Shown here: in pieces, positions 15,153-37,480 of the stretch
Layout: each line of letters starts with the position of its first letter
Position numbering within the stretch: the stretch's first letter is position 1
The notes under the pieces: model-generated
The model's database searches: none
What the model was told of the DNA's origin: nothing
What the model saw: only the letters and a program-made list of their open reading frames with translations
Source: Candidatus Latescibacterota bacterium
Lineage (GTDB): Bacteria; Latescibacterota; UBA2968; UBA8231
DNA: 64,000 nt
Assembly: GCA_965215195.1 (NCBI GenBank)
Contig: CBDCDC010000002.1
Location: forward strand, 3,328,001-3,392,000
Reading direction: 5' to 3'
Made by a program: the position numbers and the translations under genes

Positions 15153-16883
15153 ATGTCCGCACAGAAAACCCAGTGGGTAAACGCCGCTCCGCTCGAATCC
15201 GTGCCGCCGGGCCAAGCCCGGGCCGTGCGATTGGGCCGCGAGCGCAGCATTGCTTTGTTCAACGAGGGAAAAAATATCTACGCCACCGACAACCAGTGCC
15301 CCCACATGGGGTATCCGCTAGTGCGCGGCGTGGTGCGGCACGGGGTGCTCACCTGCGACTGGCACGGCCGCAGTTTCGACTTGGAGGGCGGCGGTTGTTT
15401 CAACCGCGAGTGCGACGATCTGCAGACTTTTGCCGTGGAGGTGCGCGGGCCCGATATCTGGGTTGAGGTGCCCGAGCCGAGCTATCGGCGGCGCGAAGAA
15501 CACCTGAGTCTCCTGTGGGAGGGCCTGTTGAGTTGCGACCGCTGGACCCAGTCCAAGGCCATCGCCCTGCTGTTGCGCGGAGACGTGCCCCAAGACGATA
15601 TCGTGGAGTTGGTCGTGCGCCACTTGGGCCGCCACATCGCCAGTTCCCACGGGGCCGAGGGAGGCCAAGACGTGGTCCTCCTGCTGTCCGGCCTCCAAGT
15701 GGGGAGGCACTACGAGGGAGCAGATCGCCTGATCGCCTTGACCACGGCGGCCGGAGCCGCGGCCGGGGGAGCGGCCGAGCGCTTGGATGTGGTCCCCCTG
15801 CCCGATCCGGTCGATTGGGCCTCCATTGCGCGTTGGGTGCGCGCTTTTTCCCGCGACAGCCAAGCCGGGCGCATTGAACGCTGTCTGTTCACCGCTGGCC
15901 ACGCCGGGCATCAGGAGAAAATTCTCCCCCTGCTCTTCGGCTGCGCGACGGCCCCCTACTTTCTCGGCTTTGCCGACCACGTCATCTATCTGCACCACTT
16001 GGCCCGAGTACAGGAGGAATTCGGCTGGGATCGGGCCGGGGAGTTGGTTTTCAACTTAGGGGCCAAGCTGGTGGGTCGGGGTCGGGGCGAGCCTGAGCGC
16101 TTTCGCCGGGACGCCATTGCCCTCATGGGCGATATGGAGCCGATCTTGGCCCAAGCCCGAGCCGGCGACCCGGAGGTCCCCTACGACGAAGACAGCTTGG
16201 CCAAGGCCCTATTGAGCGCCGATTTGGAGACCGCTTTTGGTGCCTTGACCCAGCAGCTAGAGGCCGGAGTTAGTCTCGACCGCCTCATCGACACCTGCCT
16301 GCTGCTGGCGGCCGACCGCATGGCCCGGGTGCCGGTGAACGTGGAGGCGAGCTGGCCCTGCCTCACCCGGGAATTCAACTTGGCCGCGGCCCTGCGCACC
16401 GTGCGGTGCTACGGAGGCCCTGCGGCCGCGGCCCGGGGGCTGGTCCACGCGGCTTGGCAGTTTTTCGACGACCGCTGGCTCAACATTCCCTTCCGCCCTC
16501 TGAGCGAGCCTTTGACCACCTCGGCGACCGCAGAGGATCCAGCGTCCATTGTGGAGGCCATTCAGACGCTCAATGTCCAAGAGGTAGGGGGCCGCGTCTT
16601 GGCCTATGGACTGTCCGGCCACCCGGGAGAACCCCTGCTAGAAGCCATGGGCCGGGCCATCCTGTGGGACGACACGGCCCATCAGTTACTCCCCACGCTG
16701 GGGACCGTCTTTGCGGAGTGGGAGCATTTTGCCAACAGCGACCACCCGGCCCGGCTGCAAATTTTGGCGGGACTAGCCCGCTTTGCCACGGATGTGTGCA
16801 CCAACAAAGACAGCGGCTCGGCCGCCCGCGCCGCCCTGCGCTTTGCCCAAGGCCACACGGCCGTAGATATCTTTGACGACTAA
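15153..16883 (+). CDS. Rieske [2Fe-2S] ferredoxin domain plus long alpha-helical domain, paralogue 1
   Basis: NQCPHMGYPL...LTCDWHG Rieske ligands; ~470 aa helical C-terminus; strong RBS. Confidence 0.85.
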   Translation: MSAQKTQWVNAAPLESVPPGQARAVRLGRERSIALFNEGKNIYATDNQCPHMGYPLVRGVVRHGVLTCDWHGRSFDLEGGGCFNRECDDLQTFAVEVRGPDIWVEVPEPSYRRREEHLSLLWEGLLSCDRWTQSKAIALLLRGDVPQDDIVELVVRHLGRHIASSHGAEGGQDVVLLLSGLQVGRHYEGADRLIALTTAAGAAAGGAAERLDVVPLPDPVDWASIARWVRAFSRDSQAGRIERCLFTAGHAGHQEKILPLLFGCATAPYFLGFADHVIYLHHLARVQEEFGWDRAGELVFNLGAKLVGRGRGEPERFRRDAIALMGDMEPILAQARAGDPEVPYDEDSLAKALLSADLETAFGALTQQLEAGVSLDRLIDTCLLLAADRMARVPVNVEASWPCLTREFNLAAALRTVRCYGGPAAAARGLVHAAWQFFDDRWLNIPFRPLSEPLTTSATAEDPASIVEAIQTLNVQEVGGRVLAYGLSGHPGEPLLEAMGRAILWDDTAHQLLPTLGTVFAEWEHFANSDHPARLQILAGLARFATDVCTNKDSGSAARAALRFAQGHTAVDIFDD

Positions 16884-16893
16884 GGAGAAAAAT

Positions 16894-18621
16894 ATGTCCG
16901 AACAAGCGAGTACTTTTGTACCGGTGGCCCGCGCCGACGAGGTAGAGGAGGGGCGGCCCAAGGCCGTGCGGATCGAGGGCCGCAGCGTGGCACTCTTTCG
17001 CCACCAAGGCACCTTGTACGCCACGGACAACCAATGTCCGCACATGGGCTACCCCCTCACCCGGGGGCGGGTGCGCAATGGCGTACTCACCTGCGACTGG
17101 CACGGCTGGAGCTACGACATGCGGGGCGGTGGCTGTTTCACCGGGGGCTGCGACGATCTGGACACTTATCCGGTGGAAGAGCGCAACGGCCAAGTATTCG
17201 TCGATGTGGCCGCGGCCAACTCCAAGCGCAAAGACGCCCACTTCCTGCTCCTGAAGGAAGGCCTGCTCAGCGGCGACAACTGGACCTTGTCCAAAGCCAT
17301 CGCCATTCTGCTGGCCCGGGGGGTCTCCGAGGATGAGACGCTGAACCTGCTGATGGAGCACATGGGCCGCTTTATCGCCACCGAGCGCGGCCCCGACGGA
17401 GGCCGCGACGTGGCCCTGCTGGTCAACGGCGTAAAGGTGGCCCGCCTGTACGAGCCGGCTGACCGCCTCATCCCGCTCATGATGGCGGCCTCCGGGGCCG
17501 CGGGCCGGGCCGGGGACCGCCCCCAGATCCACCCGCTACCGCAACCAATAACTTGGGACAAACTGGCCCGCTGGATCCGCGTCTTCAGCACCGACAAGAC
17601 TTGGGAAGGCATTGAGAAGTGCTTGGTGACCGCTCGGCATTTGGGCGACTGCGACGACCGCATTGTGCCGCTGTTGTACGAGTGCGCGGTCGAGTCTTAT
17701 TTGCTGGGCATGACCGACAATCTGATCCACTTGGGCTATCTGGCCGAGTTGCTGGAGGAATTCGGCTGGGACCGGGCCCAACTCTTGGTGTGCAATCTGG
17801 CCGCCAAAATGCTGGGCCGCAATCGGCCAGCTCCTCACGAGGCCCGCCGAGAGGCCATAGACTTGTTCGCCGAGGTGGAGCCGGTGGTCGCCCAGTACGC
17901 GTCCGGTTCCGGGGATTTCGACGCGGATCGGCTGGCCGCCGGCTTGGTCAGCGGCGATTTGGAAGAGACCTTTGGGGCGGTGACGCGGGTGCTAAAAGCG
18001 GGTGCCGATATCGAGCAGGTGGTTTCCACCATGGTGCTGTTGGCGGCCGACCGCATGGCCCGCACGCCGGTGAATATGAGCCCCGGCTGGGGCGATTTGA
18101 ACCGCGAATTGATCCTGTCGGCGTCCGTGCGCACGGCTCGGCGTTGCGCCGGCGATCAGGTGGCAGCCCGCGCCTTGTACCACGCGGCTTGGCAATTCTT
18201 CGACAACCGCTGGCTCAACATCGCGCCCCGGCCCTTGAGGGCGCACCCGGCCCCGCAAGAGGCTTCTACTGGCCAAGACGAGGCCCTGGCCGCGGTGATC
18301 GAGGCGATTGAGACCATCCAGATCCGCGAGGTGGGCCGCTTGGTGCGCGAGTACTTGCAGCGCGGCTTTGACGGGGGCTACCTGCTGCGCGAATTGGGCC
18401 AGACCATCCTCAGGGACGACAATGGCTGGAATTTGCTGCACGCCTTGCGCACGGTCAGCGAGGAGTGGAGCCGTTGCGCTGGTCATCCTGCCCGGGGGCA
18501 GTTGCTGGTGGGGCTGGCCCGGTGGGCTACGGATGTGCGGCGCAATACCGGGAGTCAGTCGGCCGTGCAGACGGCGCAGCGCTTTGCCCGGGGCGAGACC
18601 GCAGTGGAGCTGTACGAGTAG
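16894..18621 (+). CDS. Rieske [2Fe-2S] ferredoxin domain plus long alpha-helical domain, paralogue 2
   Basis: Same NQCPHMGYPL/CDWHG/CDDL motifs; shares WT.SKAIA, LLAADRMAR, HAAWQFFD.RWLNI with paralogue 1; ATG 16894 after AAGGAG. Confidence 0.85.
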   Translation: MSEQASTFVPVARADEVEEGRPKAVRIEGRSVALFRHQGTLYATDNQCPHMGYPLTRGRVRNGVLTCDWHGWSYDMRGGGCFTGGCDDLDTYPVEERNGQVFVDVAAANSKRKDAHFLLLKEGLLSGDNWTLSKAIAILLARGVSEDETLNLLMEHMGRFIATERGPDGGRDVALLVNGVKVARLYEPADRLIPLMMAASGAAGRAGDRPQIHPLPQPITWDKLARWIRVFSTDKTWEGIEKCLVTARHLGDCDDRIVPLLYECAVESYLLGMTDNLIHLGYLAELLEEFGWDRAQLLVCNLAAKMLGRNRPAPHEARREAIDLFAEVEPVVAQYASGSGDFDADRLAAGLVSGDLEETFGAVTRVLKAGADIEQVVSTMVLLAADRMARTPVNMSPGWGDLNRELILSASVRTARRCAGDQVAARALYHAAWQFFDNRWLNIAPRPLRAHPAPQEASTGQDEALAAVIEAIETIQIREVGRLVREYLQRGFDGGYLLRELGQTILRDDNGWNLLHALRTVSEEWSRCAGHPARGQLLVGLARWATDVRRNTGSQSAVQTAQRFARGETAVELYE

Positions 18622-18776: not shown

Positions 18777-20501
18777 TCAATACGCCACCCCCACTAGGCG
18801 GGCAGCCGAGTTGTCAGCCCTCGCGTCGTCATCTACCTCAATACGGGCGAGGTAAAGGCCCGGGGATACTAAAATTCCCCCTGCATCTCGTCCGTCCCAG
18901 ACGAGGCGATACAGCCCGTTTGCCATGTTGCGCCTCTCAGAAAGACGCCTCACTTTCCTGCCTGCCAAGTCGTAGAATTCCACCGCTACTTGCCGGGCTA
19001 CATTGACTTTGAGCACGGCAAACGAAAAGACAGCCGCGTCGTTGATGCCGTCGCCATTTGGGGTAAAAGTGGTGGGATCCACCTCGATCATCCCGATCTG
19101 CCCGCGGCGGTCGGTCGTCAACACTGTCAACCCCTCACCTGCAGCCAATTCGTCGCCTACCGGGTTCGCTGGATCCACCCGTTGCCAGTTGTCCGCTTGC
19201 GTCGAACGCCCAACCTCGGCCGCAAAAGTGGCACCGCTCAGGAAAACGCGCGACGAAAAAGAGAGCCGCACAATATCCGCACTGCCTCGCCGCAGTATCC
19301 TTGGCAAGCCAAGTTGCAGCGTGTCGCTTGTCGCCCTAACCAACTCCAGCCTCTCCCCCACCCCATTCTCAAAACGTCCTTTTGCCACCTCGGCAAATAC
19401 TTCCTCGTTTCCGGCTGCAAATTCGCTTTCGTCTCCCAAGCTCACTTGGCGCAGTTCGATAGTCGCTTGCGAAGGAGCGATGAGACGGATGCGGTCAAAT
19501 CCCGGGTCTCGAGCGGCAAAGGAGGGGCGGATGAAGAGGTCGAAATCGATGAGTTCGCCGAGGGAGACATTCCGCTTGGGCTCTATTTCTCCGCCGATGC
19601 GCTCTACCAGCGGGGCCGTGAAGTGGACTTGGATCGACTGCAAGCTGGCGGCCGCGGCCGCGTCTTCACTGAGCAGTCTCGTCTGGAGCATCATATAGCG
19701 CCGGGGATTGGGGGAACGTATGACTTCGCCCGGTTTGACGTAGGCTTGACTCCAGTTGCTCCAGCCCGCTCCCGGCAGAAACTCGGTAAGGATCTCCCCT
19801 CTGTAGAAGGACGGCTGAGCTTCGTATTCTTCTTTGTTGGCTACTTCTGTGCCGTCTTTCTTGAAATAGCGGTTTACCTCGCGCAGATCGTTTCCCGTGC
19901 GGGTGCGGATTTCCACCGCTGTGCCCGGGGGGGTGTTAGCTTCCCATTCGATGGTAGAAAGCGTCTTGGAACTCTCCAGATCGATGAGGTCGGAAGTCAT
20001 CTCGAGGATCGGCAAGTGCCCGTTGGCGAAGACTTGGATTTCGGTCACCGTGCTCAGTATCCGGTGCCCTTCATGGGCCCTAGTGCGGCGGGCAATATCT
20101 AGGTTGCGGAATTCTAGAAAGCGCATCGGGCGCGGTGCAAAGCGATCCTCGAACAGGCGCGTATTCTGGTTTAGCTGCCGCGTCTCACCACTCAATTCCT
20201 CCCAGATTAAACTGCCATCGGATGCTAGCGAGCCGTCCGAACCGCGCAATAGATAACCAATCAGGTTTCTTCCTCCGACGCGGGTAATGATGCGCACGGC
20301 GTGGACTAGGAAGTGGGTGCCCAGATCCACGTTCAACAGACCCCATTCGGCGGTCTCCCCAGTGGGAAAATAGACCATGCCCTGCCACTCGGTACGCACG
20401 TTGCCGTCAACGGCAAGTTCGGGCGAAGAATTGGGATTGACGTCGTGCAGACTGCCGCCGCGCTCTACGATCCCCAAGGCAATGTTCTCGCCCACACTCA
20501 C
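18777..20501 (-). CDS. discoidin-like/FlgD-Ig C-terminal domain protein, C-terminal part of a frameshifted gene
   Basis: VDLG..F.V, SPNPRRY, FTPNGDGIND, YDLAGRKVR, WDGRD..G..V.PGLY; no signal peptide of its own. Confidence 0.75.
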   Translation of the reverse strand: MSVGENIALGIVERGGSLHDVNPNSSPELAVDGNVRTEWQGMVYFPTGETAEWGLLNVDLGTHFLVHAVRIITRVGGRNLIGYLLRGSDGSLASDGSLIWEELSGETRQLNQNTRLFEDRFAPRPMRFLEFRNLDIARRTRAHEGHRILSTVTEIQVFANGHLPILEMTSDLIDLESSKTLSTIEWEANTPPGTAVEIRTRTGNDLREVNRYFKKDGTEVANKEEYEAQPSFYRGEILTEFLPGAGWSNWSQAYVKPGEVIRSPNPRRYMMLQTRLLSEDAAAAASLQSIQVHFTAPLVERIGGEIEPKRNVSLGELIDFDLFIRPSFAARDPGFDRIRLIAPSQATIELRQVSLGDESEFAAGNEEVFAEVAKGRFENGVGERLELVRATSDTLQLGLPRILRRGSADIVRLSFSSRVFLSGATFAAEVGRSTQADNWQRVDPANPVGDELAAGEGLTVLTTDRRGQIGMIEVDPTTFTPNGDGINDAAVFSFAVLKVNVARQVAVEFYDLAGRKVRRLSERRNMANGLYRLVWDGRDAGGILVSPGLYLARIEVDDDARADNSAARLVGVAY

Positions 20502-21472
20502 ACCTCCACCTCGGCGAGTTGAGGCCGTTCGCGGCGGTAATAGCGCACCCCGCCCTGCTGCTCAAATGGCAACTGGTCGTAGCGCTCGGCCGTTACTAGA
20601 CGCTCTTCGCTGGCGATTTTCCAGACGTATTCCACAGCACCTTGGTCCTCTGCTGCCAGCGCCTGATACTCCTCGGCCGAGAGCTGTTGCGCCCGCTCGC
20701 CGTTGGTGGCCGTGACCGCGATGCGCAGGTACTGCATAATGCGGCCGGCCCACTCCTCTGCATAGGTGCCCAGCGGTGCGAGATCGAACTCAAAGACCCG
20801 CTGGGCGCGATTGGGCTGGGTAGTGCTGCCGACCAAGGCGTAGTCCAAGGCGCCGCTGCGGTCGGCCGTGCCAAAGGGATTTTGCCCCCCTGCCGAATGC
20901 ACCCTGAATTGCAGGAACGGATCCCCTTCTTCGGCAAAGCGCACGACGACCTTGGTGGCCGACACCAGACGGCCCAGATCGATCTCCAACACCCAGTCCT
21001 GTAGGGGGTCCGCCGGATCCGGCTCCCAAGCTGTCGCCGGATCTGCGTCAATGGCCCACTCTGCGAGTTGCGGATTTGAACCGGCCCTTTTGATACCGCC
21101 GTGCGCCAGCAGCGCGTTGTTTTCGTCTTGGAACGAATTGGCGTACTGATCCCGCAAGCTGCCATCAATGGGATAGCTAAAGTCGGCCGCATTCAATATG
21201 GCGTTGTGCGGTACTTGTACAAATCTGGACTGCACTGAGCCAGATGGCGTTATCGCCACCATGTCCCGCGGAAAATCCCAAGCCTGCCAGTGCGCCTCGG
21301 TTCGCACCTCCACCTGACCCGCGCCCATACTGTAACCCCTCGACTGGGCCCATACCCCGTTTAGAGCCATAGGGAGAAGGGCTACACAATAGAGAGCCGC
21401 GGACAAAAGACCCAATCGCCGCACGGCGGTCGCCAAAATCATCGAGTACTGTGCAAGCAAGCAGCGTTTCAT
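20498..21472 (-). CDS. secreted discoidin-like protein, N-terminal part of the same frameshifted gene
   Basis: Signal peptide, AIDADPATAW, EIDLGRLV; ends LAEVEV-TGA, and one extra G gives EVEVWSVGENIAL in frame with the next ORF. Confidence 0.7.
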   Translation of the reverse strand: MKRCLLAQYSMILATAVRRLGLLSAALYCVALLPMALNGVWAQSRGYSMGAGQVEVRTEAHWQAWDFPRDMVAITPSGSVQSRFVQVPHNAILNAADFSYPIDGSLRDQYANSFQDENNALLAHGGIKRAGSNPQLAEWAIDADPATAWEPDPADPLQDWVLEIDLGRLVSATKVVVRFAEEGDPFLQFRVHSAGGQNPFGTADRSGALDYALVGSTTQPNRAQRVFEFDLAPLGTYAEEWAGRIMQYLRIAVTATNGERAQQLSAEEYQALAAEDQGAVEYVWKIASEERLVTAERYDQLPFEQQGGVRYYRRERPQLAEVEV

Positions 21473-21502
21473 AACCTGTTGTCCCGGATAAGACGCATCT
21501 GT

Positions 21503-23248
21503 TTATCGCGAATCATCGCCCTTGGTTGGGGCTTCCCATGTATGGCGTTGCAGGAACGCATCGGGCAGGGCCGCCTCCAACGCGCTGTCAGATACGGCGA
21601 GCCGCTCTTTGTACTTGTCCAGCAGATCGTCGATCAGTTCCTCAAAAAGCTGCTCTCGCTTCTGTCCGCGCACCAAAGCCCGCGCCTTTTTCTCGACTTG
21701 AAAAAAGGGCGCTAACTCTCCCCCCTCGCGGTTGAGAACCTTAAAAATGCTGTATCCGCCTTTGACGCGCTCCGGGCCGGTTATTTCGTCGAGAGCGGCC
21801 GCCTTTACTGCTTTGAAGAGCCGCGGCTGGGTCAAACGCTCGTACTCGCCCAGAGGCATCAAGCCATCCTCTTCCTTCATACCCGGGCGAATAGTGTGCT
21901 TTTGCGCGAGCATTCCGAGGGTCGCACCTCGTTCAATGGTGCGCAGCAAACCAGCGGCTTCCACCTCGGTCTCGACCAGTACTTCAACGACGATGTATTG
22001 GGCCGGCTCCCTGAACAACCCCTCATTGTTCTCGTAAAAATCCCTCGCTTCCTCCCGGCTCGCCGCGGATTGGTCGATGATCTCTTCCTCGCGTAGCTGT
22101 TTGATCATGAATTCCGCGTGCATTTCCTCCAATCGCTGTTGTCCACCCGCCATCTCCGCCAATCCGGCCCGCTGCGCCGCCTCTGCCAACAAGGCCGGTA
22201 TCAGTACCAGTTCCCTCGCTGTATTGACTACTTCAGCACTGTCCCGCACACCCCAGCCGGACATGGCCCGCATATCCTTCCACAGGGCATTGAGGTAATC
22301 GCCCAGCGTGATCTGCCCCCCCTCATAGGTAAAGAGGGGCTGGTCCGCCTCCTCGGCGGCCAGATGGGCGCGTCGCACCCGGGGGTGGAGGGCCGCTTTA
22401 TTCAACAGGAGCTCCACGCCCTCTGGCACTAGCTGCACGTCCAGCTTGCGGGTGAGGGCCGCGATTTCCGCCCTCTCCTGCTCTAGTCGCTTGCGTTCGT
22501 AAAGTATATCGCGGATCTGCTGTCGTCTCTCCTCGAGCGCAACGGGCTGGTCTTGGAGAAAACGCACGATCTGGTAGCGCGTACCCATGGGCATGATCGG
22601 GGATAGCTGTCCACTCGGCAGACTGCGGAACACCTCGTCTGGAATCTGCAACCTGCGAGCCTGCTCCAGATCGATAAATCCCAGTACGCCCCCCTGAGAA
22701 GCCGACCGTTCGTCTATGGTGTATTCGGCGGCCAGCCGGGCAAAATCCCCGCCCGCTTCGAGTTGCTCATAGATTTGCTTTGCAGTGCTGTCTTCTTCCA
22801 CCAGAATGCCCGCCATCTGGCGCTTGCGGTCCAAGCCGCTGTGGGCGAAATAGGCGCGTACCTCCTCCTCGGAAACCTGTACGTTGGGTGCCAGTGCGAG
22901 CCGGCGATAGGTGTTGACCAAGTGCTGGCGCCAGTAGGGCATCACCTTAGTCTGTACCACCTCGGCGGTATCCAATCCCCGCTCTTTGGCCTCCAATACG
23001 AGCAGGTGCTTGGCCAGCAGACTGCGCAGGTAGTGCTTCCGCACCGGGTCGCCCTGCCCTTTGAGGCGCAAGGGCTGGGGCATCTGGACGACGAAATCGC
23101 GCATCTCGGCAGCCGAGATGGACGTGGAATCAATGCGCGCCACCACCCCGGGTTCGAGTACGACCTCCGCACCCGGAGAACACGCCGCGAGGCTCCATAC
23201 GAGTGCCAGTTCGCATCCTTGCCAAGTCCATGGTTTTCTGTGTCCCAT
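21503..23248 (-). CDS. SurA/PrsA-like peptidyl-prolyl isomerase with two parvulin domains, probable lipoprotein
   Basis: LAAC lipobox; GGDFARLAAEYTID..S...GG.LG; second degenerate parvulin domain (GYSIFKV). Confidence 0.8.
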   Translation of the reverse strand: MGHRKPWTWQGCELALVWSLAACSPGAEVVLEPGVVARIDSTSISAAEMRDFVVQMPQPLRLKGQGDPVRKHYLRSLLAKHLLVLEAKERGLDTAEVVQTKVMPYWRQHLVNTYRRLALAPNVQVSEEEVRAYFAHSGLDRKRQMAGILVEEDSTAKQIYEQLEAGGDFARLAAEYTIDERSASQGGVLGFIDLEQARRLQIPDEVFRSLPSGQLSPIMPMGTRYQIVRFLQDQPVALEERRQQIRDILYERKRLEQERAEIAALTRKLDVQLVPEGVELLLNKAALHPRVRRAHLAAEEADQPLFTYEGGQITLGDYLNALWKDMRAMSGWGVRDSAEVVNTARELVLIPALLAEAAQRAGLAEMAGGQQRLEEMHAEFMIKQLREEEIIDQSAASREEARDFYENNEGLFREPAQYIVVEVLVETEVEAAGLLRTIERGATLGMLAQKHTIRPGMKEEDGLMPLGEYERLTQPRLFKAVKAAALDEITGPERVKGGYSIFKVLNREGGELAPFFQVEKKARALVRGQKREQLFEELIDDLLDKYKERLAVSDSALEAALPDAFLQRHTWEAPTKGDDSR

Positions 23249-23256
23249 GTCTTCTA

Positions 23257-25107
23257 TCAGTACGCCAGAGCGATAGACCCCAAGCGCTCCTCCCGCCCGC
23301 TGCCTGCTTCTACCGCGACGCGGTAAATGTACAGTCCTGGAGCTACCAATTCGCCTTGGTCATCCCGCCCGTCCCAAGCAGTTTTATAGAGTGCGCTACC
23401 CCCCTCCCTGCCGCCCAAGGTGCGCACTCGGTTTCCCGCCAGCGCGTAGATTTCCGTCGCGAGAGGCACGACATCGGTCAGACGCAGTAAAGTATAGGAG
23501 AACTGCACTCGGTCGTTGACCCCGTCTCCATTGGGTGAGAATGGGTTGGGAACCACCTGCACGGCGCTGAGCAGACGGCCCTTGAGCGGCGTGCGGACGT
23601 TCAAGGCGTCGCTCAACAACTCGCTCATAGCATCTCCGGGAATCACGCTCTGGGGTACTTCGTCGCGGTCCGCATCCGACACCGCGCCGCTGAAGGTCGT
23701 TCCATAGCTGAAGACTCGGGCGTCGAAATCTACTTCTAACAGCGTCTGGTCTTGGTCGATGCGGTCAAATTGGATGGCGAATTGGTGGGGATCTGCCGGA
23801 GCGAAACTCGGGGTAAAATCTTCTACTTCGCGGTCGATGCGCACCTCGTGGATGGCCTCCAGACGAGCGGGCGTATGCACCTCGAGAACATTGAAACCCG
23901 ATTGCCCGGCCTCTAGTCGAGTCCGCACTGCATAAGTAAACCGAACCGGGTCGGATGACTCAACAAAAGAAGGGTAGATCTCGCCAATCGCCTCGGCGAC
24001 TACCGGGGGTTGGGAAAATTCAAAAAACAGCGAGTCAATCTGTCCTCCCGCCAAGCTAGCAGAAAAAAAAGCGATGCGTAGCTGCACGTACTGCCGGGGG
24101 CTGGGAGAAAGCATCCGGGTGCCGGCGAGTCCGTCCGCATACTCATAGGTGTGCCATACGCTCCAGTTTTCCAGATCCGGGGTAATGCGCCCCTGCACGT
24201 TCTGGGGCATAGCCTCATACGCTTGGCGGCTCATGGGCCGACCGTTGATCCCGAGTGGCACTTCCTCTGCCCCCACGCCGGTCTTGCGCCAGTAGATTTC
24301 GGGCTGGTCATCGCGGCCGCTGCGGCTCTGGATGACTGTTTTCGCTCCTATATCGAGTTGGCCGCTCCACCAGATGCGTCCCAAACTCGATGCTCGTCCT
24401 AGATCGATCGGGTCGGACAGAAATGAGGCATGGGGAACAAACCCCTGACCGTACACCTCGAACTCGGCCACTTCCCAAGTCTCCCCCACTTCCACAGGGT
24501 GGAGATAGACGTGGCGTGCTATCTGGGGTTCGATATCCAGTTCGACCGCCGGGTTCAAGTTGTCTTTCTCGTCGCGGACTAAGGTCCAGATGAGATTCCC
24601 TTTTTCGTTTTTGCTCTCTTCCCTGCCGTCGTTGATATAAAGCCTAAACTGGCGGATCTTGTGCCCCGGATGATCGGCGCGGGTTGCAAAGCGGACCCCT
24701 TCAATGGGGAATGGGGCCCCCAGATCGAAGAACAGCGGCGTGGTATAGAAGAACCCGGGGCCGCGAAAGAAATTGATGCGCGGCGGATGTACAAAAGCCG
24801 TAGTCGAATCGCCATCTACTATCAGTACGCGGTCGTCTAGCCAATTGGCCGGCAGGGTGTAAATGCTCACCAAGCTGGTAATATCGCCATTCCGCTCGCC
24901 CATCGAGGCAATCAGATTCTCGCCGCTTTCGGCGCTGAATGGGCGGATGGCACCCGGCACTTTTTTCACGTCGATAGAACTCAGGGCACCGCTTCCACTC
25001 CAAGGGTTTCCGGCGCGGCCCCCCAGTTGGTAAAATTGGCGCGCCTCGGCCCGATAGCCCGCTCCCGCCATCAACCCTGTCAGGACTACAATCAGGACCT
25101 GTCTCAC
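23257..25107 (-). CDS. secreted discoidin-like/FlgD-Ig C-terminal domain protein
   Basis: GTG 25107 after AAGGAG; signal peptide; FDLGAPF, EFEVYGQGF, SPSPRQY, FSPNGDGVND, WDGRDDQG.LVAPGLY. Confidence 0.8.
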   Translation of the reverse strand: MRQVLIVVLTGLMAGAGYRAEARQFYQLGGRAGNPWSGSGALSSIDVKKVPGAIRPFSAESGENLIASMGERNGDITSLVSIYTLPANWLDDRVLIVDGDSTTAFVHPPRINFFRGPGFFYTTPLFFDLGAPFPIEGVRFATRADHPGHKIRQFRLYINDGREESKNEKGNLIWTLVRDEKDNLNPAVELDIEPQIARHVYLHPVEVGETWEVAEFEVYGQGFVPHASFLSDPIDLGRASSLGRIWWSGQLDIGAKTVIQSRSGRDDQPEIYWRKTGVGAEEVPLGINGRPMSRQAYEAMPQNVQGRITPDLENWSVWHTYEYADGLAGTRMLSPSPRQYVQLRIAFFSASLAGGQIDSLFFEFSQPPVVAEAIGEIYPSFVESSDPVRFTYAVRTRLEAGQSGFNVLEVHTPARLEAIHEVRIDREVEDFTPSFAPADPHQFAIQFDRIDQDQTLLEVDFDARVFSYGTTFSGAVSDADRDEVPQSVIPGDAMSELLSDALNVRTPLKGRLLSAVQVVPNPFSPNGDGVNDRVQFSYTLLRLTDVVPLATEIYALAGNRVRTLGGREGGSALYKTAWDGRDDQGELVAPGLYIYRVAVEAGSGREERLGSIALAY

Positions 25108-25144
25108 CGAGTGCCTCCTTTGCTTGGTTGCCAACCAAGAGAAC

Positions 25145-25176
25145 GGCGGGGTTCACAGTCGCCCGCGAACCCCGCC
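25145..25176 (-). terminator. intergenic hairpin (weak terminator or mRNA stabiliser)
   Basis: GGCGGGGTTC/GAACCCCGCC perfect 10 bp stem, followed on the minus strand by GTTCTCTT. Confidence 0.55.
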
Positions 25177-25220
25177 TAAAACGATCCTTCGACCTCTGTG
25201 GTGCAGACAGTCGGGTCGGC

Positions 25221-26096
25221 CTATTTGAAGGTGGACTTGATCTGGCCCCAAGTGTTGGCCTCGACCGCGGTAGCTCTAGCCTCGGGCAATCCCTCTTCGA
25301 TTGGTGCCAACAAATAGTCGCCGAACTGGTCGGCATCCCTAGAAGCGCCTATGCCACCGAAACCGGACCAATAGGCATCGTCGTAGGAGCCGGGATCGGC
25401 ATCCTTGTCGCCCCAGTTGACCTCTATGCCGACGACTGTGCCTTCGACCCAATTGTGTCTGACACTCTGGTCGGGGCCGTCGGGATGGATGTCGTCAAAG
25501 GGCACAATGGAGTACTCGCCGAACATTTCGGCCGGCTCTTGGGTATTGACGTCGCCGCGGAGAAACTTGCCGGCCCACTCTACGTAAGGGGACTGGCCCG
25601 CCCACGCTTTGGAGCCATCGATAATCCGGGTATAATAGCCGGAAGAGCTGAAAATCGGGCCGGCCAGATCGTAGCGCTGGGCTTGGGCACTGGCCCAACG
25701 GGTCTCGAAGTCATCCCCTTGGTCAAAGCCGCGAAAGATGCCGCCGGTGTGATCCCAATCCGTGGTCGTCGACCACTTCTCGGTGTCGTTGATAAAGTCG
25801 TCGGCGATCCAAGCGCCAAAATAGGCCTTGCCGTCGTTGATGTTGTAGCCCCAGACGAGCCAGGCGTTGAAATCGCTCAAATCCATGGGCGCACCGAACT
25901 GGTTGAACATGGTTTCGGCTTTGATCTTGTACACATCGCCGACAATGTCCCAGTCCGACATATCGCCGTCCAACTCCGGCGTCAGGTGATCCGGGAACTG
26001 GAACATGAACCTGATCTCGCCTTGGTGGCCAAAAGCCGCGCCGACCACGAGGGCCGAGACCAATAAAGCAATGGACACCTGATTGATTCTCTTCAT
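25221..26096 (-). CDS. secreted CBM9/DOMON-like protein with C-terminal TAVE..TWGQIK tail
   Basis: Signal peptide, PELDGDMSDW motif, Asp/Trp-rich beta body, ends ATAVEANTWGQIKSTFK. Confidence 0.7.
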   Translation of the reverse strand: MKRINQVSIALLVSALVVGAAFGHQGEIRFMFQFPDHLTPELDGDMSDWDIVGDVYKIKAETMFNQFGAPMDLSDFNAWLVWGYNINDGKAYFGAWIADDFINDTEKWSTTTDWDHTGGIFRGFDQGDDFETRWASAQAQRYDLAGPIFSSSGYYTRIIDGSKAWAGQSPYVEWAGKFLRGDVNTQEPAEMFGEYSIVPFDDIHPDGPDQSVRHNWVEGTVVGIEVNWGDKDADPGSYDDAYWSGFGGIGASRDADQFGDYLLAPIEEGLPEARATAVEANTWGQIKSTFK

Positions 26097-26253
26097 TGTA
26101 ATACCTCTTTTTCAGTTAGTGTGTGGACATTGCGCCCTTTGCTGCTCCAAGCGGGCCTGAAACGACGCCTGTTTCTTTCTCCTCCTTTCAGTTGCCAACA
26201 GATCGTCTGTTAAAAATATATCTTGAATTCAACTTTGAGGCAGGTCAAATCCA

Positions 26254-28923
26254 CTAGCGTTCCAGCCCTGCATAGGCCGTCATGAATATCTTGCTGGTCG
26301 TGCTAGAGGGCAAATTTTCAAACGTCAGCTTCTGTAGGCGAAATCCCGTCTGTAGATGGAGCCTGTAGCCGAGGTAATCCGAGGCGTTATTAAATTGCAG
26401 CGCGACGATGCGACTGAAGGAATCCGGCTCTAGGTCGCGCTTGACTGGCACCCCCTCGTCGTCGTCGCGGAACTGCTCAAAGTGGGATAGTTCTAGTCCC
26501 AATTCGATGAGCGTATGGGAGAGCAGGGGAATGCGGGCAATGAGAAAAAGCGTCTCGGTCAACTCGCGGCGCTCCGGGTCGCGCTTGCGAACGGGACGCT
26601 CGCGCAAAAATTCGCTCTTGAAGCGCGGTTCAAGTTCGATGTTTCCCACCGGGAAGGTGTAATCGACTTTGTTGATGAGACCGACAAAGCTGGCCGTGCT
26701 GCGTAGGTCGCGCTGATCCCGGCGCTGGTTGTAGGTTTCAGTCTTGAGCTTGTTGATTACGTTGAGGTTTCCTATGCGCGTGAAGTCGAACTGTACATAG
26801 GACGTGTTGACCCAAGTGTCGCGGGCCGGGAGCAAATCGAAAACGCGCTGTTGAGTGCCGCGGGAATTAGACGGCTGCACCCACTGGAAGAGGTTGTCGG
26901 GAATATCGTCCTCGACCAGCTTGAAGTTGTCGAACACCCGCAAGCGGCCCAACCGGGCAAAATCCCTTTCGTAGGTGAAGAGCAGGTACGTGGATTCGTT
27001 TTTGCGATCCCCGGCCAGCAGTTTTTCGCGCAAATGCCCGACGGTCAGCCGGGCCTCGGGGCCGATGTGGGTTCCCGCGTACATATTGTAGCCGCGGTGG
27101 TCGCGCCCGTAGGGATAATCGGGTTCTTCGTCGTTTTCAAAGCGGTCGATCCAGCCGTTGTTGTTCATGTCAACGCCAAAGAGGTATTCGGGTCTATCGG
27201 AGTGATAGCGCAGGAAGGGCTCTTCGTAATCGGGAATGAAGTTCTGTCGATCCTCGGTATCGTTCTGGTTGAAATCCGAGACGAAATCGTTGTTCTCGTC
27301 AAAACCTGGAAAGACCGCATTGTCCGACAGCATACTATAGCGGTTCCAGTCCGGCCGGCGGTCTTGGTCATCGTTGTCCTCGACGAACTCGTAGATATAG
27401 GATATTTCGTCTTCGTAATCGATTTCGTCCTGTCCCCGAGTACCCGCCAAAAAGGTGCGGGTAGAATAGTCGTCGTCCATGCTGTAGCCTTCGAGAAAGA
27501 CAAACCAAGGATAGGACGCCTTGGACAGGTTGAACATCCATGCCTCGGCGTCGTCAACCGCCTTGCGATGATCCTTTAGGTTGAGATTGGGATACTGGCG
27601 GTACTGCTTGTTGAAATCGTACTCCCCGTAAAAGTCAAAACCCCAGATCTTATTGGTCTCTAAGGTAACGCCGAGGATGGTATTGGCCGTGGGCAGGCCG
27701 TAGTCGAATTGCAACAGGCGCTGGTTGGAGTTGTCGCGGATATTATCCTCGGCCCGTTCGATCAGCAAAAAGACGGGCTGCGAGTCCCGGTTGGTCTGCC
27801 GGTCGGACGTGATTTCCACCTTGTAGTCGTTGGAGATCACCAATTCAAAGGATACTCTCTCAATAACCGTAGGATCGGGTCCTATGTACAAAGGGTCCGT
27901 AAAATCGTAGGTGAGGGTAATGCGCTCGTCCCCGTCGGCGGCTAAAAACCCCACCCGTTGGAATCCCCCTTCGCGTATGGGCTCGAATCCTATGGCACTG
28001 CCTCTGAAAACGTTGCCATCGACATCCTCGATGATGATTTCGTCGTCGAACAGGGCCGCCCCACCCACCCCGTCGGCAGGCGAGTCGTCCGACAGCCGGA
28101 TAATGATGCGGGATATGGGCAGCGCATTCTGGTCGGTGGTCAAGGCCCCGCCCGTGAAAGGGTTGCCGGTGAAATCGTCGAACAGCGTCTGGCCTTGGAA
28201 GGCGGTCACATAGGTCGCCCCGACCTCGACGAAGTCGCCAACCTGAACGATGCCCCGCCCACCAAGCAAGTTGGTGACACTGGTCTTCTGATCGGGAATA
28301 TCCAGCGAAGTGGCCACGGCCGGCCGACTGGGCCGGGCCAACAGGAGAGTACCCTGGTACTTATCGGCAGCAAAGTCCCACTGAATGCCGTTGAATGTGG
28401 GTTTAGAAAAGGTCATCGGTGTCAAAGTGGTGCGGATCTCATCGCCAATCGTGATGCTATAGTAGTATTGTCCCTTGTGGTCCGAGGAGACGACTACTCG
28501 GTTGAACCACTGGTTGAACCTGTTGGTCTTGAGGATGCTACTGCCGAATTGCTGGGGACGATCTTGCTGCCAATCGTAGATCAACCAGCCCCGGGCGACT
28601 AGATTGCCGAAGAAATCGTAGAAGTAATCGCCCTCTAACGCGGTGTCCACATAGCGCTGATAGGGCTCGCGGGCGTAGTTGGAGTACTCCCACTGTCTCC
28701 ATTGGTACTCCCTATACAGTTCTTGGGGGACGTACCATTTGCGCACTGCCGGATCCAGCGCATCGAATAATACCCCCGGTCCCTGCGGGGAAAAATCCAC
28801 CTCTCCACCTTGCTTCACTCTACCGAGGCGCGAGCCGTATGCTTGGGCACCAACCGGAGTCGGCGCACTCCAGCCTAGCGCGCAAAAAACAGCACCTACC
28901 ACAATCAGATAGCACTTGCTCAA
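26254..28923 (-). CDS. large secreted protein, probable outer-membrane beta-barrel
   Basis: TTG 28923 after GAGGAGGAGG; signal peptide; aromatic-rich alternating strands in the C-terminal third; DxNxN/DxDxD Ca-loop-like segments. Confidence 0.65.
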   Translation of the reverse strand: MSKCYLIVVGAVFCALGWSAPTPVGAQAYGSRLGRVKQGGEVDFSPQGPGVLFDALDPAVRKWYVPQELYREYQWRQWEYSNYAREPYQRYVDTALEGDYFYDFFGNLVARGWLIYDWQQDRPQQFGSSILKTNRFNQWFNRVVVSSDHKGQYYYSITIGDEIRTTLTPMTFSKPTFNGIQWDFAADKYQGTLLLARPSRPAVATSLDIPDQKTSVTNLLGGRGIVQVGDFVEVGATYVTAFQGQTLFDDFTGNPFTGGALTTDQNALPISRIIIRLSDDSPADGVGGAALFDDEIIIEDVDGNVFRGSAIGFEPIREGGFQRVGFLAADGDERITLTYDFTDPLYIGPDPTVIERVSFELVISNDYKVEITSDRQTNRDSQPVFLLIERAEDNIRDNSNQRLLQFDYGLPTANTILGVTLETNKIWGFDFYGEYDFNKQYRQYPNLNLKDHRKAVDDAEAWMFNLSKASYPWFVFLEGYSMDDDYSTRTFLAGTRGQDEIDYEDEISYIYEFVEDNDDQDRRPDWNRYSMLSDNAVFPGFDENNDFVSDFNQNDTEDRQNFIPDYEEPFLRYHSDRPEYLFGVDMNNNGWIDRFENDEEPDYPYGRDHRGYNMYAGTHIGPEARLTVGHLREKLLAGDRKNESTYLLFTYERDFARLGRLRVFDNFKLVEDDIPDNLFQWVQPSNSRGTQQRVFDLLPARDTWVNTSYVQFDFTRIGNLNVINKLKTETYNQRRDQRDLRSTASFVGLINKVDYTFPVGNIELEPRFKSEFLRERPVRKRDPERRELTETLFLIARIPLLSHTLIELGLELSHFEQFRDDDEGVPVKRDLEPDSFSRIVALQFNNASDYLGYRLHLQTGFRLQKLTFENLPSSTTSKIFMTAYAGLER

Positions 28924-28948
28924 AATCCTCCTCCTCGCTTGGCTGGCA

Positions 28949-30982
28949 CTAGTATACCACGGACACACTGTTGGAACGCCGCTCAATCTCCCGGTCGGAG
29001 CGGATTTCCACTACTGCTAGGTAGATGCCCGGCGGTACTAGGCGGTCGTCGTCGCCGCGACCGTCCCACTGTAGCTCAATGCGGCCGTTTTGCACCTCAA
29101 CAGAGCTGAGCCGCCGCACGCGGCCACCGGCCAAATCGTAAATAGTTACCTCGGCCGGCGATGGTTCGAGCAAGTGCAAAACCGCATAGCTTATTTCCAC
29201 TACGTCGTTGGCCCCATCTCCGTTGGGGGTGAAGGTCCGCGGCTGGATTGCCAGCGGACCAGCCACCTGCGAGCCCACGGGAATTCGCACCAGCAACTCG
29301 TCGGTATCCTGTTCGGCTGAAGCATCCCCGCCCTCGGTCTGCAGCGGCACTTGTACGCTGGCATCGGCAAAAGCCCGCCCTTGGAAACGCGTACCATAGC
29401 GGAACACGGCCGCATCAAAGACAATTTTCAAAAGAGTGCCATCGGCGTCGATCAGAGGTAAGCCTAGGGCAAAGTGGTCTTTTTCCACCGCCTCAATGGA
29501 GAACGATCCGACGCGCAGGGGCAAAGACACACCGGCCAGATCGCCGCCGAACTCGGCTCCAGCTAGGCGATTGCCCGCCCCATCTTGGATTTCTACCGAA
29601 TGGATGGCCGCGATGCGGGCCGGGGTTTCGATTTCAAAGCGCGTAAATCCCGGCCGGCCCGTAGTATTGGCGATGCGGGCGAAGTACGTAAAAGTCGTCT
29701 GTTCGCCGACCTCGGTCCGCGGCGGTCCCACCTCGGCGATGATGCGGTCAACCGGGGGCTGTGCGGACTGGAAGCCCAAGTCGGCGACAGCGCGGCCGGC
29801 ATCCAAGCTCAGATTGGTGAAATCGATGCGGAACTGGAAGTAGCGCCGCGGTGCCGGCACAGTCAGGGGAGTGCCGTTATCGACTAGTTGCCACTGGACC
29901 CAGCCGTTGTCGGTGTCGGCTTTGATGGGGCCCCGCTGATTTTTCGCCAGTTTCTCGAAGGTTTCCTCGGTCAGCGCATTGCCCTCGCTGTCAGTGGACA
30001 CATATTCGGATTGTCGGCCTCCTACATTGGCATTGCGGAAAAAGATATCAGGCGTCGTATCCTGCCCGCTGCGCACGCGAACTTCCATCTTGGAATCCGC
30101 GCTATTGCCGGCGGCCACTTCGCTCCAAGCGATTCGGCCCCAGACCACCTCCTCGCCCAGATCCAGCACATTGGACACATAGCTGGCCGTTGGTACGAAT
30201 CCCCTGCCGTACACCTCTATCTCGTCAATTTCAAATCCGAGGGTGGAAATCGACTTGAGTTGCAGAAAGCGGACAAATTGGGGGCTGATCTGTGCTTCTA
30301 CTCTGGCCTCGCGGTTGTCCGGCTCGCGCCGCACCGGCGAGGTGAAAATGGGCTGCCCACTGGCAAAGAGGTTTTGCGGCAAGCCATCGTTGAGGAACAA
30401 CTCATATCCCCGCATGAATTCGTTCCCAAAGGGAAACGACGCCGTCATCCGCGGATAGAACGCAATCCGGTCCACGCCAAAGCGCGCACCAAGGTCAATG
30501 CGAATGGTGACGCCGTTGTTGCGCACGATGCGGCCGGCCACGAACTTGCGGTCAAAAGCTACCCGGTGGTCGCCATTGAGCATGCCCGCCAATTGCTCTG
30601 GATCTTTCTGGCTGGCATCCAGCCCTGGAACATCTATAGTGCCCCCTCGCTCGAGAATACCGAGCGAAATGTTGAAGTCGGAGCGCAAGCGCAGCGGCGT
30701 GATCCAGTTCCGCAGAGAATCCGCGCCAACGGCGAACACTCTTCCGCCGTTGGCATCCTCGATAGTTCCGAGTTGCTCGACAAAATCGATCACGCCCCCG
30801 GGTGTTGTGCCAGAATTGCGCCAAGGACGTTCGTCGCCGCCGACCGTAAAAACATCCTGTGCGCTGGTTGGGCACACGGACAGCAGTAGCAGTAGGTGAA
30901 GAAAAATTGGCGCAGGAGGGACGCGTTTTTCACGTAGCGATTGCAGCAGCTTGAAAAGGGGACCGATGGGATGATATTCCAT
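28949..30982 (-). CDS. secreted discoidin-like/FlgD-Ig C-terminal domain protein
   Basis: IDLGARFGV, EIEVYGRGF, PAPRRYFQ, FTPNGDGAND, YDLAG..VR, WDGR....LVPPGIY. Confidence 0.8.
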   Translation of the reverse strand: MEYHPIGPLFKLLQSLREKRVPPAPIFLHLLLLLSVCPTSAQDVFTVGGDERPWRNSGTTPGGVIDFVEQLGTIEDANGGRVFAVGADSLRNWITPLRLRSDFNISLGILERGGTIDVPGLDASQKDPEQLAGMLNGDHRVAFDRKFVAGRIVRNNGVTIRIDLGARFGVDRIAFYPRMTASFPFGNEFMRGYELFLNDGLPQNLFASGQPIFTSPVRREPDNREARVEAQISPQFVRFLQLKSISTLGFEIDEIEVYGRGFVPTASYVSNVLDLGEEVVWGRIAWSEVAAGNSADSKMEVRVRSGQDTTPDIFFRNANVGGRQSEYVSTDSEGNALTEETFEKLAKNQRGPIKADTDNGWVQWQLVDNGTPLTVPAPRRYFQFRIDFTNLSLDAGRAVADLGFQSAQPPVDRIIAEVGPPRTEVGEQTTFTYFARIANTTGRPGFTRFEIETPARIAAIHSVEIQDGAGNRLAGAEFGGDLAGVSLPLRVGSFSIEAVEKDHFALGLPLIDADGTLLKIVFDAAVFRYGTRFQGRAFADASVQVPLQTEGGDASAEQDTDELLVRIPVGSQVAGPLAIQPRTFTPNGDGANDVVEISYAVLHLLEPSPAEVTIYDLAGGRVRRLSSVEVQNGRIELQWDGRGDDDRLVPPGIYLAVVEIRSDREIERRSNSVSVVY

Positions 30983-35924: not shown

Positions 35925-36047
35925 TTGAACTCTCCTTGTGTGCCTGAAGTATAGCCACAGGTCTACTCCTTTTTGAAATTCGTTCGAGGATCGACTAATC
36001 GCGTTGCGGTCTCCTTTTTTGTATCGTTGTGATATGCCTCAGTCTAA

Positions 36048-36890
36048 GAGCCTATACGAAAATTGATTTTCTGTTGATACAAAGGTCTTGGCGACCTACG
36101 CTTTCCGTACCATTTACCCTCAACCAAGAGGCGGAAAGCCATGGCCACCAAGACCGATTCGCCGGACACAATCTGGCGTATCCCGGATGCCTTGTGGCAT
36201 CGAATCACCCCGATTCTGGGTCCGGAAAAACAACCCGGCACTGTCGGACGCCCGTCCACGCCCCACCGCGTCCTCTTCGACGCGATTTCCGACAATGGGT
36301 GAAACAAGGCGTGTTTCTCCGAGCTTGGCAGACGCTGCTGCACTACTATGATACGGAAGTGGGTATTGCTTGGGAATGGCAAGCCCTCGATGGGGTGATC
36401 ACCAAAGCGCCGTTGGGCGGCCAAGCGACGGGTCCGTCGCCGGTCGATCGGAGTAAACAGGGCACCAAACGGTCGGTGTTGACCGACCAGCGAGGGGCAC
36501 CACTGGCGGTGGAAATAACCGGAGCCCATACACACGACAAAACGGTGGCACGGGCGACGCTGGATGGCCTTGTCGTGGAAAGACCCAAGCAAGTCGTCTA
36601 TCGGCTGCATCCTCGGTGTCTGGACACAGGCTATGATTACGCCGATGTGATCGAAGGAGTTGAGCAACGCGACTATCACCTACACTTAGCCAAAAGGGGA
36701 GCCGACAAGACCACTCGGCGCGGCCAAAAGAACCATTCGGCGCGTCGATGGGTGGTTGAACGAACCCATGCTTGGCATAATCGGTTCCGTCGGCTGTTGA
36801 TCCGATGGGAGAAGAAGAGTACCCATTACGAAGCATTCATTCAGGTCGCTTCGGTGCTTATCATTTTTCAAATCTTCGAACGGTTGAAAG
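36048..36890 (+). mobile_element. IS5-family element remnant (left TIR plus deleted transposase)
   Basis: TAA then TIR GAGCCTATACGAAAATT; ATG 36141 MATKTDSPDTIWRIPDALW; QALDG, DRSKQGTKRS.LTD..G.PL, LDTGYD, RWVVERTHAW..RFRRL; internal deletion and frameshift. Confidence 0.85.
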
Positions 36891-37480
36891 TGCACCAGCG
36901 GGTGTCAATTCCCTTGGAATACGTGGCTCTCGGGCGAGCGGGCAACTCGGCCACGTCCGATCAGATGCACCTGTTGGATCAAGCGTTGGGCTATCTGCCC
37001 GCAGGGCACTATTGTCTGTTGGCCGACCACGAGTTTATCGGTGGGGCGTGGCTTGGGTATCTGCTCAAGCGCGAGGTGGATTTTGTCATTTGTTTGCGTT
37101 CTAATCACACCCTTAAACGGGCTGACGGGCGTACCCTATCCTTGGAGCGGAGCACCCGCCGCCAAGCCCGAGGCATCACGCGGGTCTATCAACAGGTGCA
37201 GTTGTATGAAGGCTCCAATGCCGTCTCCGTTCATCTCATCTTATATGTCATCGAGCGGCCAACGGCTGTTTCTGGCCACCACTTTCGACGATGTGGTCGC
37301 GTTGTATAAACAGCGGTGGGCTGCCGAGACAGCGTTTGGGTTCCTTAAGTCCAAAGGCTTTGATTTGGAAGCCACGCATTTACGCACATCCAAGCGGGTC
37401 GTACGCTTGGTCGGCCTGCTCGCCCTCGGCGTACTATGGACCCTGTGCGTCGGAGAGCACCTACATCAACAAAAAAGCCT
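36890..37480 (+). pseudogene. IS4-family (DDE_Tnp_1) transposase fragment
   Basis: IPL...L...GNS, LADHEFIG..W, then after a frameshift YKQRWAAETAFGFLKSKGFDLE.THL. Confidence 0.75.

Follow-up and report, generated by a model that had tools for sequence, protein, structure and literature searches.

A Latescibacterota-restricted, expanded gene module pairing a predicted giant outer-membrane beta-barrel with discoidin-like proteins that carry type IX secretion tails

The six genes and their products

Members of Candidatus Latescibacterota are uncultured and widespread, and to our knowledge almost nothing has been learned about their cell envelope. A 64,000-nt stretch of the genome of one such bacterium (the window, below) carries on its minus strand, at positions 18777-30982, six co-oriented genes for exported products, as read from the listing of its open reading frames (ORFs). 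The locus is a single copy of a previously undescribed module, which is highly expanded and restricted to the phylum. In the direction of reading, all on the minus strand, the genes encode paralogue A (28949-30982, 677 aa), a predicted large outer-membrane beta-barrel protein (26254-28986, a 910 aa ORF with homologues of 886-892 aa), a protein named here after its TWGQIK motif (25221-26096, 291 aa), paralogue B (23257-25134, 625 aa), a peptidyl-prolyl isomerase (PPIase; 21503-23248, 581 aa) and paralogue C (18777-21472, about 898 aa). The spacing of successive genes ranges from overlap to 157 nt, and every product starts with a signal-like hydrophobic N-terminus, judged by eye. Six co-oriented genes for exported proteins had also been recognized in a first-pass annotation of the DNA, made from the letters alone.

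In the window sequence, paralogue C is divided into an ORF of 324 aa (20498-21472) and one of 574 aa (18777-20501) with a 4-nt overlap. The split is most likely a one-base assembly error, because paralogues, orthologues and contigs from public sequencing runs keep one frame. The two parts abut in a single frame in 46 paralogues of the genome, and both lie in one frame in all 13 orthologous loci having that flank. Alignment with six orthologues places a one-base gap in the window sequence of C, and the contigs of all four public runs (three studies) have one extra base behind position 20498; apart from that base, one of these contigs does not differ from the window. C is thus one gene, and the locus comprises six genes and not seven ORFs. 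Further single-base indel errors may be present elsewhere in the assembly; no relevant part of the window lacked contig cover.

Pairwise comparison of A, B and C, with C represented by its 574 aa ORF, bears out the proposal that the three are paralogues. A and B are 36% identical over 527 aa (E 8.5e-83), A and C 28% (E 4.7e-41), and B and C 27% (E 5.5e-44). The series of ordered motifs described for them can be followed by eye in all three, with small departures from the wording first given: B has ERNG for ERGG and YALAG for YDLAG, A has PAPRRY for SP.PR.Y, and C has EIQVF..G. C begins with an extra N-terminal domain, which is followed by the same core and tail as in A and B.

AlphaFold2 (AF2) modeled B with pLDDT 92.2 and pTM 0.80. 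The predicted protein consists of a signal peptide, a CBM32/discoidin domain (CBM, carbohydrate-binding module) at about 70-232, two further beta-sandwich domains and a type IX secretion system (T9SS) tail. Residues 72-230 match CBM32-6 of CpGH89 with a Z score of 15.7, a root-mean-square deviation (rmsd) of 2.0 and 123 of 126 residues aligned, and more than 30 of the 50 listed fold matches of B are CBM32 or discoidin domains. Residues 383-518 form an immunoglobulin (Ig)-like domain with a YcnI-like match (Z 12.0), and the tail, about residues 519-625, resembles the PorU C-terminal domain of P. gingivalis (Z 12.7, rmsd 2.6, 99 aligned residues). S-layer proteins and Ig-like adhesin domains are also among the fold matches. 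The corresponding Pfam family F5_F8_type_C (PF00754) remains sub-threshold on A, B and C, with E values of 0.021-0.12 and 13-15 bits against a cut-off of 28.2; the two halves of C each give a weak match (E 0.057 and 0.12). NCBI names the homologues either 'gliding motility-associated C-terminal domain-containing protein' or 'FlgD immunoglobulin-like domain containing protein'. The discoidin-like domains suggested in the first pass are thus found in the model of B. With the fold taken from that model, A, B and C are each predicted to combine CBM32/discoidin and Ig-like beta-sandwiches with a divergent type-B-like T9SS tail.

The tails had been assigned to the type-B C-terminal domain of T9SS cargo. 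Residues 581-665 of the exported paralogue A match Pfam FlgD_ig with 35.5 bits and CHU_C (PF13585) with 33.2 bits, each over a cut-off of 27. B also passes the CHU_C cut-off of 27 (28.0 bits), and C falls below it (23.0 bits). The type-B model TIGR04131 yields 24.1, 16.1 and 22.2 bits for A, B and C, all below its cut-off of 35. The matches to both models end within about 15 residues of the C-terminus. TIGR04131 is matched by all six family tails compared, three of them encoded in the window and three in distant loci, at 16-24 bits that likewise stay under the cut-off, and it is matched better than, or instead of, the type-A model TIGR04183, which none of the six passes. Two of two non-family tails pass TIGR04183 (34.7 and 34.6 bits, cut-off 23) and have no TIGR04131 match. 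By these profile comparisons the family tails form a class apart from the type-A tails of this genome, in which many proteins have a PorU-tail-like C-terminus.

The tail motif, taken as [FYLIV][STN]PN[GN]DG.ND within the last 130 aa, occurs in 78 of 129 family proteins, in none of 23 other tail-bearing proteins and in none of 4925 further ORFs. It is not a chance motif. The last residue is aromatic in 124 of the 129 family proteins as against none of the 23 others. The type-B assignment was therefore right in direction, although the tails are better described as a divergent, type-B-like class.

A search of the genome for T9SS core genes located the translocon SprA (499 bits) and the sortase PorU (629 bits), both above their cut-offs, and a PorV-like gene adjoining PorU (148 bits, below the cut-off of 250). 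An association of GldK-like or sulfatase-modifying-enzyme genes with the loci was considered and rejected, as 7 of 17 lie within 10 kb compared with a random mean of 4.7 (P 0.17). At another place in the genome (G000, C2:2146081-2169414), eight consecutive genes, six coding for 696-742 aa and two for 255-268 aa, match the locus proteins by the tail only. Since the matches are confined to the tail region, these genes probably encode T9SS cargo of another kind.

The large protein has no Pfam match even at E 10, no NCBIfam match at E 0.01, and no match in a sequence-profile search of the Protein Data Bank (PDB). An AF2 model based on a 66-sequence alignment (pLDDT 71, pTM 0.69) contains about 30 long antiparallel strands in residues 164-907. 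Foldseek searches with this model returned outer-membrane barrels exclusively, with SlpA best, followed by MtrB, ushers, LptD and TonB-dependent receptors. The best matches are to the Deinococcus SlpA entries 7zgx and 8ae1, with an E value of 2e-8 and a TM-score of 0.24. VIA-align gave a flat list of barrels with Z scores of 12-14 and rmsd values of 5-12. The model and both structural searches thus agree with the first suggestion of a probable outer-membrane beta-barrel. The protein models as a very large, approximately 30-strand barrel that is not assignable to a characterized family, because the sequence searches were empty and the structural matches are generic.

Candidate families were also considered one by one. 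No Pfam match to a plug domain or TonB-dependent receptor was obtained in the large protein at E 10, and hhalign of its profile with a profile of eight TonB-dependent receptors from the same genome gave a probability of 0.2% and an E value of 0.29. PorP/SprF (TIGR03519) gave no NCBIfam match at E 0.01, and the large protein is about three times as long as that model (292 positions). The SlpA beta-barrel family SlpA_C (PF21620) does not match the window protein even at E 10; five of 20 distant relatives match it in the same profile region with sub-threshold scores of 17-22 bits (cut-off 35), and only one place in the genome reaches E 0.01.

Homologues of the large protein numbered 1099 among 8000 scored candidates. 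Every one of their source names is 'hypothetical protein', and they come from metagenome-assembled genomes (MAGs) of Latescibacteria/Latescibacterota and some MAGs labeled Gemmatimonadetes. A whole-library profile search retrieved 1040 clusters at E 0.001, and the best 150 of these did not lead on to any named family. All 30 nearest ESM Atlas clusters are without a Pfam family; the nearest named cluster, DUF6029 (score 0.89), was treated as a lead only and not adopted. The stretches left unmodeled by AF2, residues 40-154 and roughly 546-617, correspond to its best-conserved regions, and 52 of the 116 invariant alignment columns are within residues 59-160 and 530-640. The segment 530-640 is rich in Asp and Asn with a calcium-loop-like spacing, as judged by eye.

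Three weak leads agree that the TWGQIK protein looks CBM9-like. Its nearest ESM Atlas clusters score 0.97, 0.95 and 0.93, with CBM9_1 assigned to 13%, 37% and 97% of their members, respectively. CBM9_1 (PF06452) is matched by two of nine TWGQIK paralogues, with a best E value of 0.0059, and the best PDB profile match of the protein is the CBM9 of xylanase 1i82 (E 0.081). The window protein itself has no Pfam match, even at E 10. The C-terminus of the family reads TAVE..[ST]WG[RQ][IV]K..F and is located in the window at 25221-25260. Across the genome, 55 of 78 matches to a loose form of the pattern fall within 12 residues of a C-terminus. About 50 proteins end in this way; they are exported, 147-420 aa long and belong to several families, and no transmembrane helix follows the tag. 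A literature search found no paper with the C-terminal motif strings. SWGxIK may be a new C-terminal sorting or docking tag.

The PPIase matches Rotamase_2 (56.8 bits), Rotamase (54.5 bits) and Rotamase_3 (40.1 bits) of Pfam, all above the cut-offs, in the stretches 153-229 and 397-519, and its N-terminus contains a lipobox-like LAAC, judged by eye. Assignment as a SurA orthologue was rejected, the model NF008038 scoring 20.4 bits against a cut-off of 394. Of the dedicated double-parvulin chaperone proposed initially, the two parvulin domains stand; the protein is not a SurA orthologue and appears to be a lipoprotein instead.

Copies within the genome and across the phylum

BLAST comparison of the locus proteins with all 22857 ORFs of the genome gave 53 matches for the barrel, 36 for the PPIase and 29 for the TWGQIK protein; A, B and the C-terminal part of C had 128-144. 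According to the gene maps, 38 loci of this one genome include a barrel gene. Together, the four core families take up 526,461 nt of the 6.1 Mb genome (8.6%). Within seven genes of the 38 close-class barrels, B-type genes occur at 36, C-type at 34, PPIase at 32, A-type at 29 and TWGQIK-type at 27. Counted by distance, a barrel gene is found within 12 kb for 104 of the 129 family proteins, for 29 of the 36 PPIases and for 23 of the 29 TWGQIK-type proteins. Similarity matrices of the barrel and its partners correlate with Spearman coefficients of 0.41-0.75, as high as in none of 500 permutations; because relatedness inflates such tests, the result is read merely as duplication of whole modules. 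Together, these comparisons indicate that whole modules are duplicated as units, with about 38 copies in the genome. The first-pass annotation, partly supported in its interpretation of the locus, had missed this scale.

Thirteen orthologous loci, with protein identities of 48-95%, share the order A-barrel-TWGQIK-B-PPIase-C, whereas the flanking genes are kept in eight close relatives only. As the order persists where the flanks differ, the six genes are considered a conserved unit. The barrel profile matches 72 of 121 sampled genomes of the phylum. All 40 genomes of the family to which the window belongs match, with at least five scored matches each (up to seven candidates were scored per genome), and none of 29 and none of 13 genomes match in two other families of the phylum. 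A scan of species-representative genomes yielded 455 relatives. Nearly all of the 80 retained are titled Candidatus Latescibacterota or Latescibacteria; among the 80, some are labeled Gemmatimonadota/Gemmatimonadetes, one Planctomycetota and one Handelsmanbacteria. The gene set co-occurs both in the orthologous loci and in the 38 paralogous ones, and neither a non-barrel model, nor a characterized family, nor a lack of co-occurrence in other genomes was encountered.

Literature searches on the Latescibacteria envelope, the T9SS and discoidin/barrel paralogues, with supplementary annotation tables outside their scope, found no description of the loci. A term search of PMC12993501 found no occurrence of secretion, outer membrane, gliding, FlgD or discoidin.

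Some paralogous loci hold additional genes. A 250 aa protein without a family is encoded within 12 kb of a barrel gene in 17 of its 21 copies. Multi-pass membrane proteins with DUF6785 and DUF6784 have 43 copies, of which 20 are no more than 12 kb away from a barrel gene (1000 random trials gave a mean of 7.6 and a maximum of 17), for example at L025:13851-15851 in a paralogous locus; no paper mentioning DUF6785 was found in the literature. Many modules contain proteins with a PMT_2-like membrane glycosyltransferase N-terminus and TPR repeats at the C-terminus (for example L038:4887-6881, L029:8338-10665, L039:7965-9908); it is conceivable that they glycosylate the beta-sandwich cargo within the periplasm. 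All three extras are absent from the locus in the window. Sugar ABC permease genes, identified by eye, adjoin some paralogous loci.

A distant class, with 25-29% identity to the window barrel, is arranged as three tandem barrel genes. Such loci are found at C1:160000-186800 (L144, L040), C2:3767890-3798744 and C2:2516533-2532747. In the one examined, the barrels are beside genes for ExbB, two ExbD proteins, a DUF4159 protein and a TPR protein of 1080 aa. The two ExbD/ExbB-linked loci of this kind were not taken as evidence for the class of the window.

Between the TWGQIK gene and gene B, a consensus scan only identified a stem-loop of 14 pairs, 10 of them G-C (25145-25176, minus strand), which may be an internal attenuator, a transcript end or a stabilizer. 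In a scan of the region for promoters and terminators, sites were no commoner than in shuffles, with 10 terminator-like sites found against 13.4 expected. Six RNA runs contain only 0.05-0.07 of the sampled words.

Neither flank is related to the locus. One of them includes, at 8657-15081, what resembles a type III restriction-modification set, made up of a DUF488 protein, a 254 aa ORF, an N6_N4 DNA methylase and a helicase-type restriction subunit that has an endonuclease domain at its C-terminus. The G+C content of this stretch, 0.48-0.54 compared with approximately 0.60 for the genome, suggests an acquired island. Between it and the locus, at 15153-18621, are two tandem paralogues about 580 aa long and approximately 48-50% identical to one another; both have a Rieske 2Fe-2S domain at the N-terminus, and the remainder of either protein is unassigned. 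The other flank contains genes for a 385 aa protein, an Nramp transporter and a transposase; a DDE transposase gene is located at 36029-37309.

Possible roles of the module

We give roughly an even chance to the reading that the module forms a surface capture complex, possibly active in uptake too, in which lectin-like proteins exported by the T9SS are docked on their cognate barrel. All products would cross the inner membrane via Sec, and the parvulin lipoprotein would hold or fold them in the periplasm. A, B and C would then be exported by the SprA translocon through their C-terminal domains and retained on the surface by docking on the barrel encoded by the neighboring gene, as Bacteroidota type-B cargo dock on PorP/SprF-like barrels. 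The resulting crown of lectin-like domains around a wide barrel would capture glycans or glycoconjugates, and in the weakest step of the scheme the captured material would pass through the barrel into the periplasm. Many diverged copies would supply many ligand specificities. Ligand binding and transport by the module are both putative.

Several points weigh against the capture complex. Uptake in particular is not favored by the gene content: the locus shows no plug, no TonB-dependent-receptor similarity and no inner-membrane sugar transporter (Pfam, hhalign and window annotation), and no glycoside hydrolase is encoded by the 20 extra genes that were scanned in or next to paralogous loci. The lumen of the barrel could be blocked, because its two most conserved segments are those left unmodeled. 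The CBM32 and CBM9 folds are not confined to carbohydrate-binding proteins but are shared by others with different ligands, and DOC domains, IFT25 and muskelin are among the fold matches of B at similar Z scores. The probable type-B assignment relies on matches under the NCBIfam cut-off, and the docking of A, B and C on the barrel is proposed from related systems. Among the T9SS components, the GldK model produced only partial sub-cut-off matches of the generic sulfatase-modifying type. The GldM, GldL and PorP/SprF (TIGR03519) models had no match in the genome, a result that is uninformative as the controls matched nothing either.

The strongest competitor, which we consider possible although on balance unlikely, is an adhesin or surface-coat module without transport. 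The barrel would be an anchor, and the copies would vary an adhesive or protective surface serving attachment to particles, hosts or other cells, or evasion of phages and grazers. The architecture and the linkage evidence fit this explanation equally, and S-layer and Ig-like adhesin folds are among the matches of B. It also accords with the lack, in this locus class, of hydrolases, a plug or a TonB link (20 extra genes, Pfam, hhalign). Furthermore, known type-B cargo with cognate barrels include the adhesin SprB (PMC9143113) and putative adhesins (PMC12618676). However, a 30-strand barrel is far bigger than anchoring requires, the PorP/SprF model having 292 positions, and sugar ABC permease genes are found beside some paralogous loci. 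The ExbB-ExbD-ExbD genes adjoining the distant class hint at energized traffic, which is again not evidence for the class of the window.

A more detailed version of the capture complex is a doubtful one in our view. It holds that a plug-less barrel of about 30 strands, a lectin-like crown loaded by the T9SS, a CBM9-like subunit docked through SWGxIK and a parvulin of its own would together be a so far unrecognized class of outer-membrane machine and, in Latescibacterota, a functional counterpart of SusCD-type glycan import, with the Asp/Asn-rich insert and the N-terminal region of the barrel as its gate or docking site.

Two further explanations of the barrel are less likely than either capture or adhesion. 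That it acts independently of the T9SS as a pore dedicated to secreting or assembling the neighboring products, in the manner of ushers or two-partner secretion, is improbable. The top structural matches include FhaC, CdiB and the FimD/PapC ushers (Z 13.7-14.3), and the operon contains a dedicated periplasmic chaperone, as chaperone-usher systems do. Nonetheless, the usher matches are tied with porins, LptD, BamA and TonB-dependent receptors over the range of Z 12-14 and rmsd 5-12, and so they identify a generic barrel only. Moreover, no POTRA or usher family was matched in Pfam, the PPIase is a parvulin and not a PapD-like chaperone, and the cargo bear T9SS-type C-terminal domains in a genome that has SprA and PorU. 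Very improbable, finally, is a distant SlpA-like tether or giant porin among functionally unrelated surface proteins: the best Foldseek matches are Deinococcus SlpA and a quarter of the 20 distant relatives have sub-threshold SlpA_C scores, but the TM-score is only 0.24, the window barrel has no SlpA_C match at E 10, a single place in the genome reaches E 0.01, no SLH domain was matched in Pfam, and the tight co-duplication with the neighbors speaks against independence.

The genome devotes 8.6% of its DNA to one repeated module whose central protein has no known family. If the proposed capture complex is correct, the module would be a new candidate route for substrate capture or adhesion. The analysis also identifies a candidate new C-terminal sorting tag, and about 1000 barrel sequence clusters, together with well-folding lectin-like domains, are targets for structural and binding studies.

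Comparison with known systems

The SlpA barrel has 30 strands. The Latescibacterota barrel resembles SlpA of Deinococcus and Thermus in being a very large barrel of similar length, in having SlpA as its best Foldseek match and in the weak SlpA_C scores of its distant relatives. It differs in the low TM-score of that match, in the absence of an SLH domain and in the absence of a sequence match of the window protein.

The module shares with the polysaccharide utilization loci (PULs) of Bacteroidota, comprising SusC/SusD and SusE/F, the occurrence of many paralogous loci and the combination of a barrel with surface proteins made of carbohydrate-binding-type beta-sandwiches; the fold matches of B include a SusE-like protein (Z 11.8). 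In contrast to PULs, the module has no plug, TonB-dependent-receptor similarity or SusD-family match, and no glycoside hydrolase was detected in the 20 extra genes. A Pfam test of the locus for a PUL found no SusD, plug or glycoside-hydrolase family. Surface delivery would occur through T9SS tails and not by lipidation, and the genome has, in addition, about 15 ordinary TonB-dependent receptors. The first-pass annotation had raised an analogy to SusCD while noting that TonB plug, SusD and glycoside hydrolase motifs were missing; the missing motifs are confirmed, and the analogy is weak given the lack of similarity to TonB-dependent receptors.

The closest counterparts are the type-B cargo of Bacteroidota with their PorP/SprF barrels, such as SprB-SprF of Flavobacterium johnsoniae and PG1035-PorP-PorE of Porphyromonas gingivalis. 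In the two papers cited above, type-B cargo are described as binding PorP-like barrels (PMC9143113) and as depending on cognate, genetically linked shuttle barrels, with 12 type-B substrates in F. johnsoniae (PMC12618676). The Latescibacterota module is similar in that cargo of the CHU_C/TIGR04131 kind are encoded beside a barrel gene, in a genome with a second, type-A class of tails and with SprA and PorU. However, its barrel is about three times larger, with approximately 30 strands and no PorP/SprF match. There are two to three cargo genes per barrel, and the unit includes a CBM9-like tagged protein and a parvulin lipoprotein. The tails score below the TIGR04131 cut-off, the phylum is a different one, and about 38 units occur per genome compared with the 12 substrates of F. 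johnsoniae (PMC12618676). If the proposed function is true, the principle of type-B cargo with a cognate barrel reaches beyond Bacteroidota, with a far larger barrel and on a far larger scale. By analogy with these systems, the module is regarded as a form of T9SS cargo with cognate barrel that is specific to Candidatus Latescibacterota.

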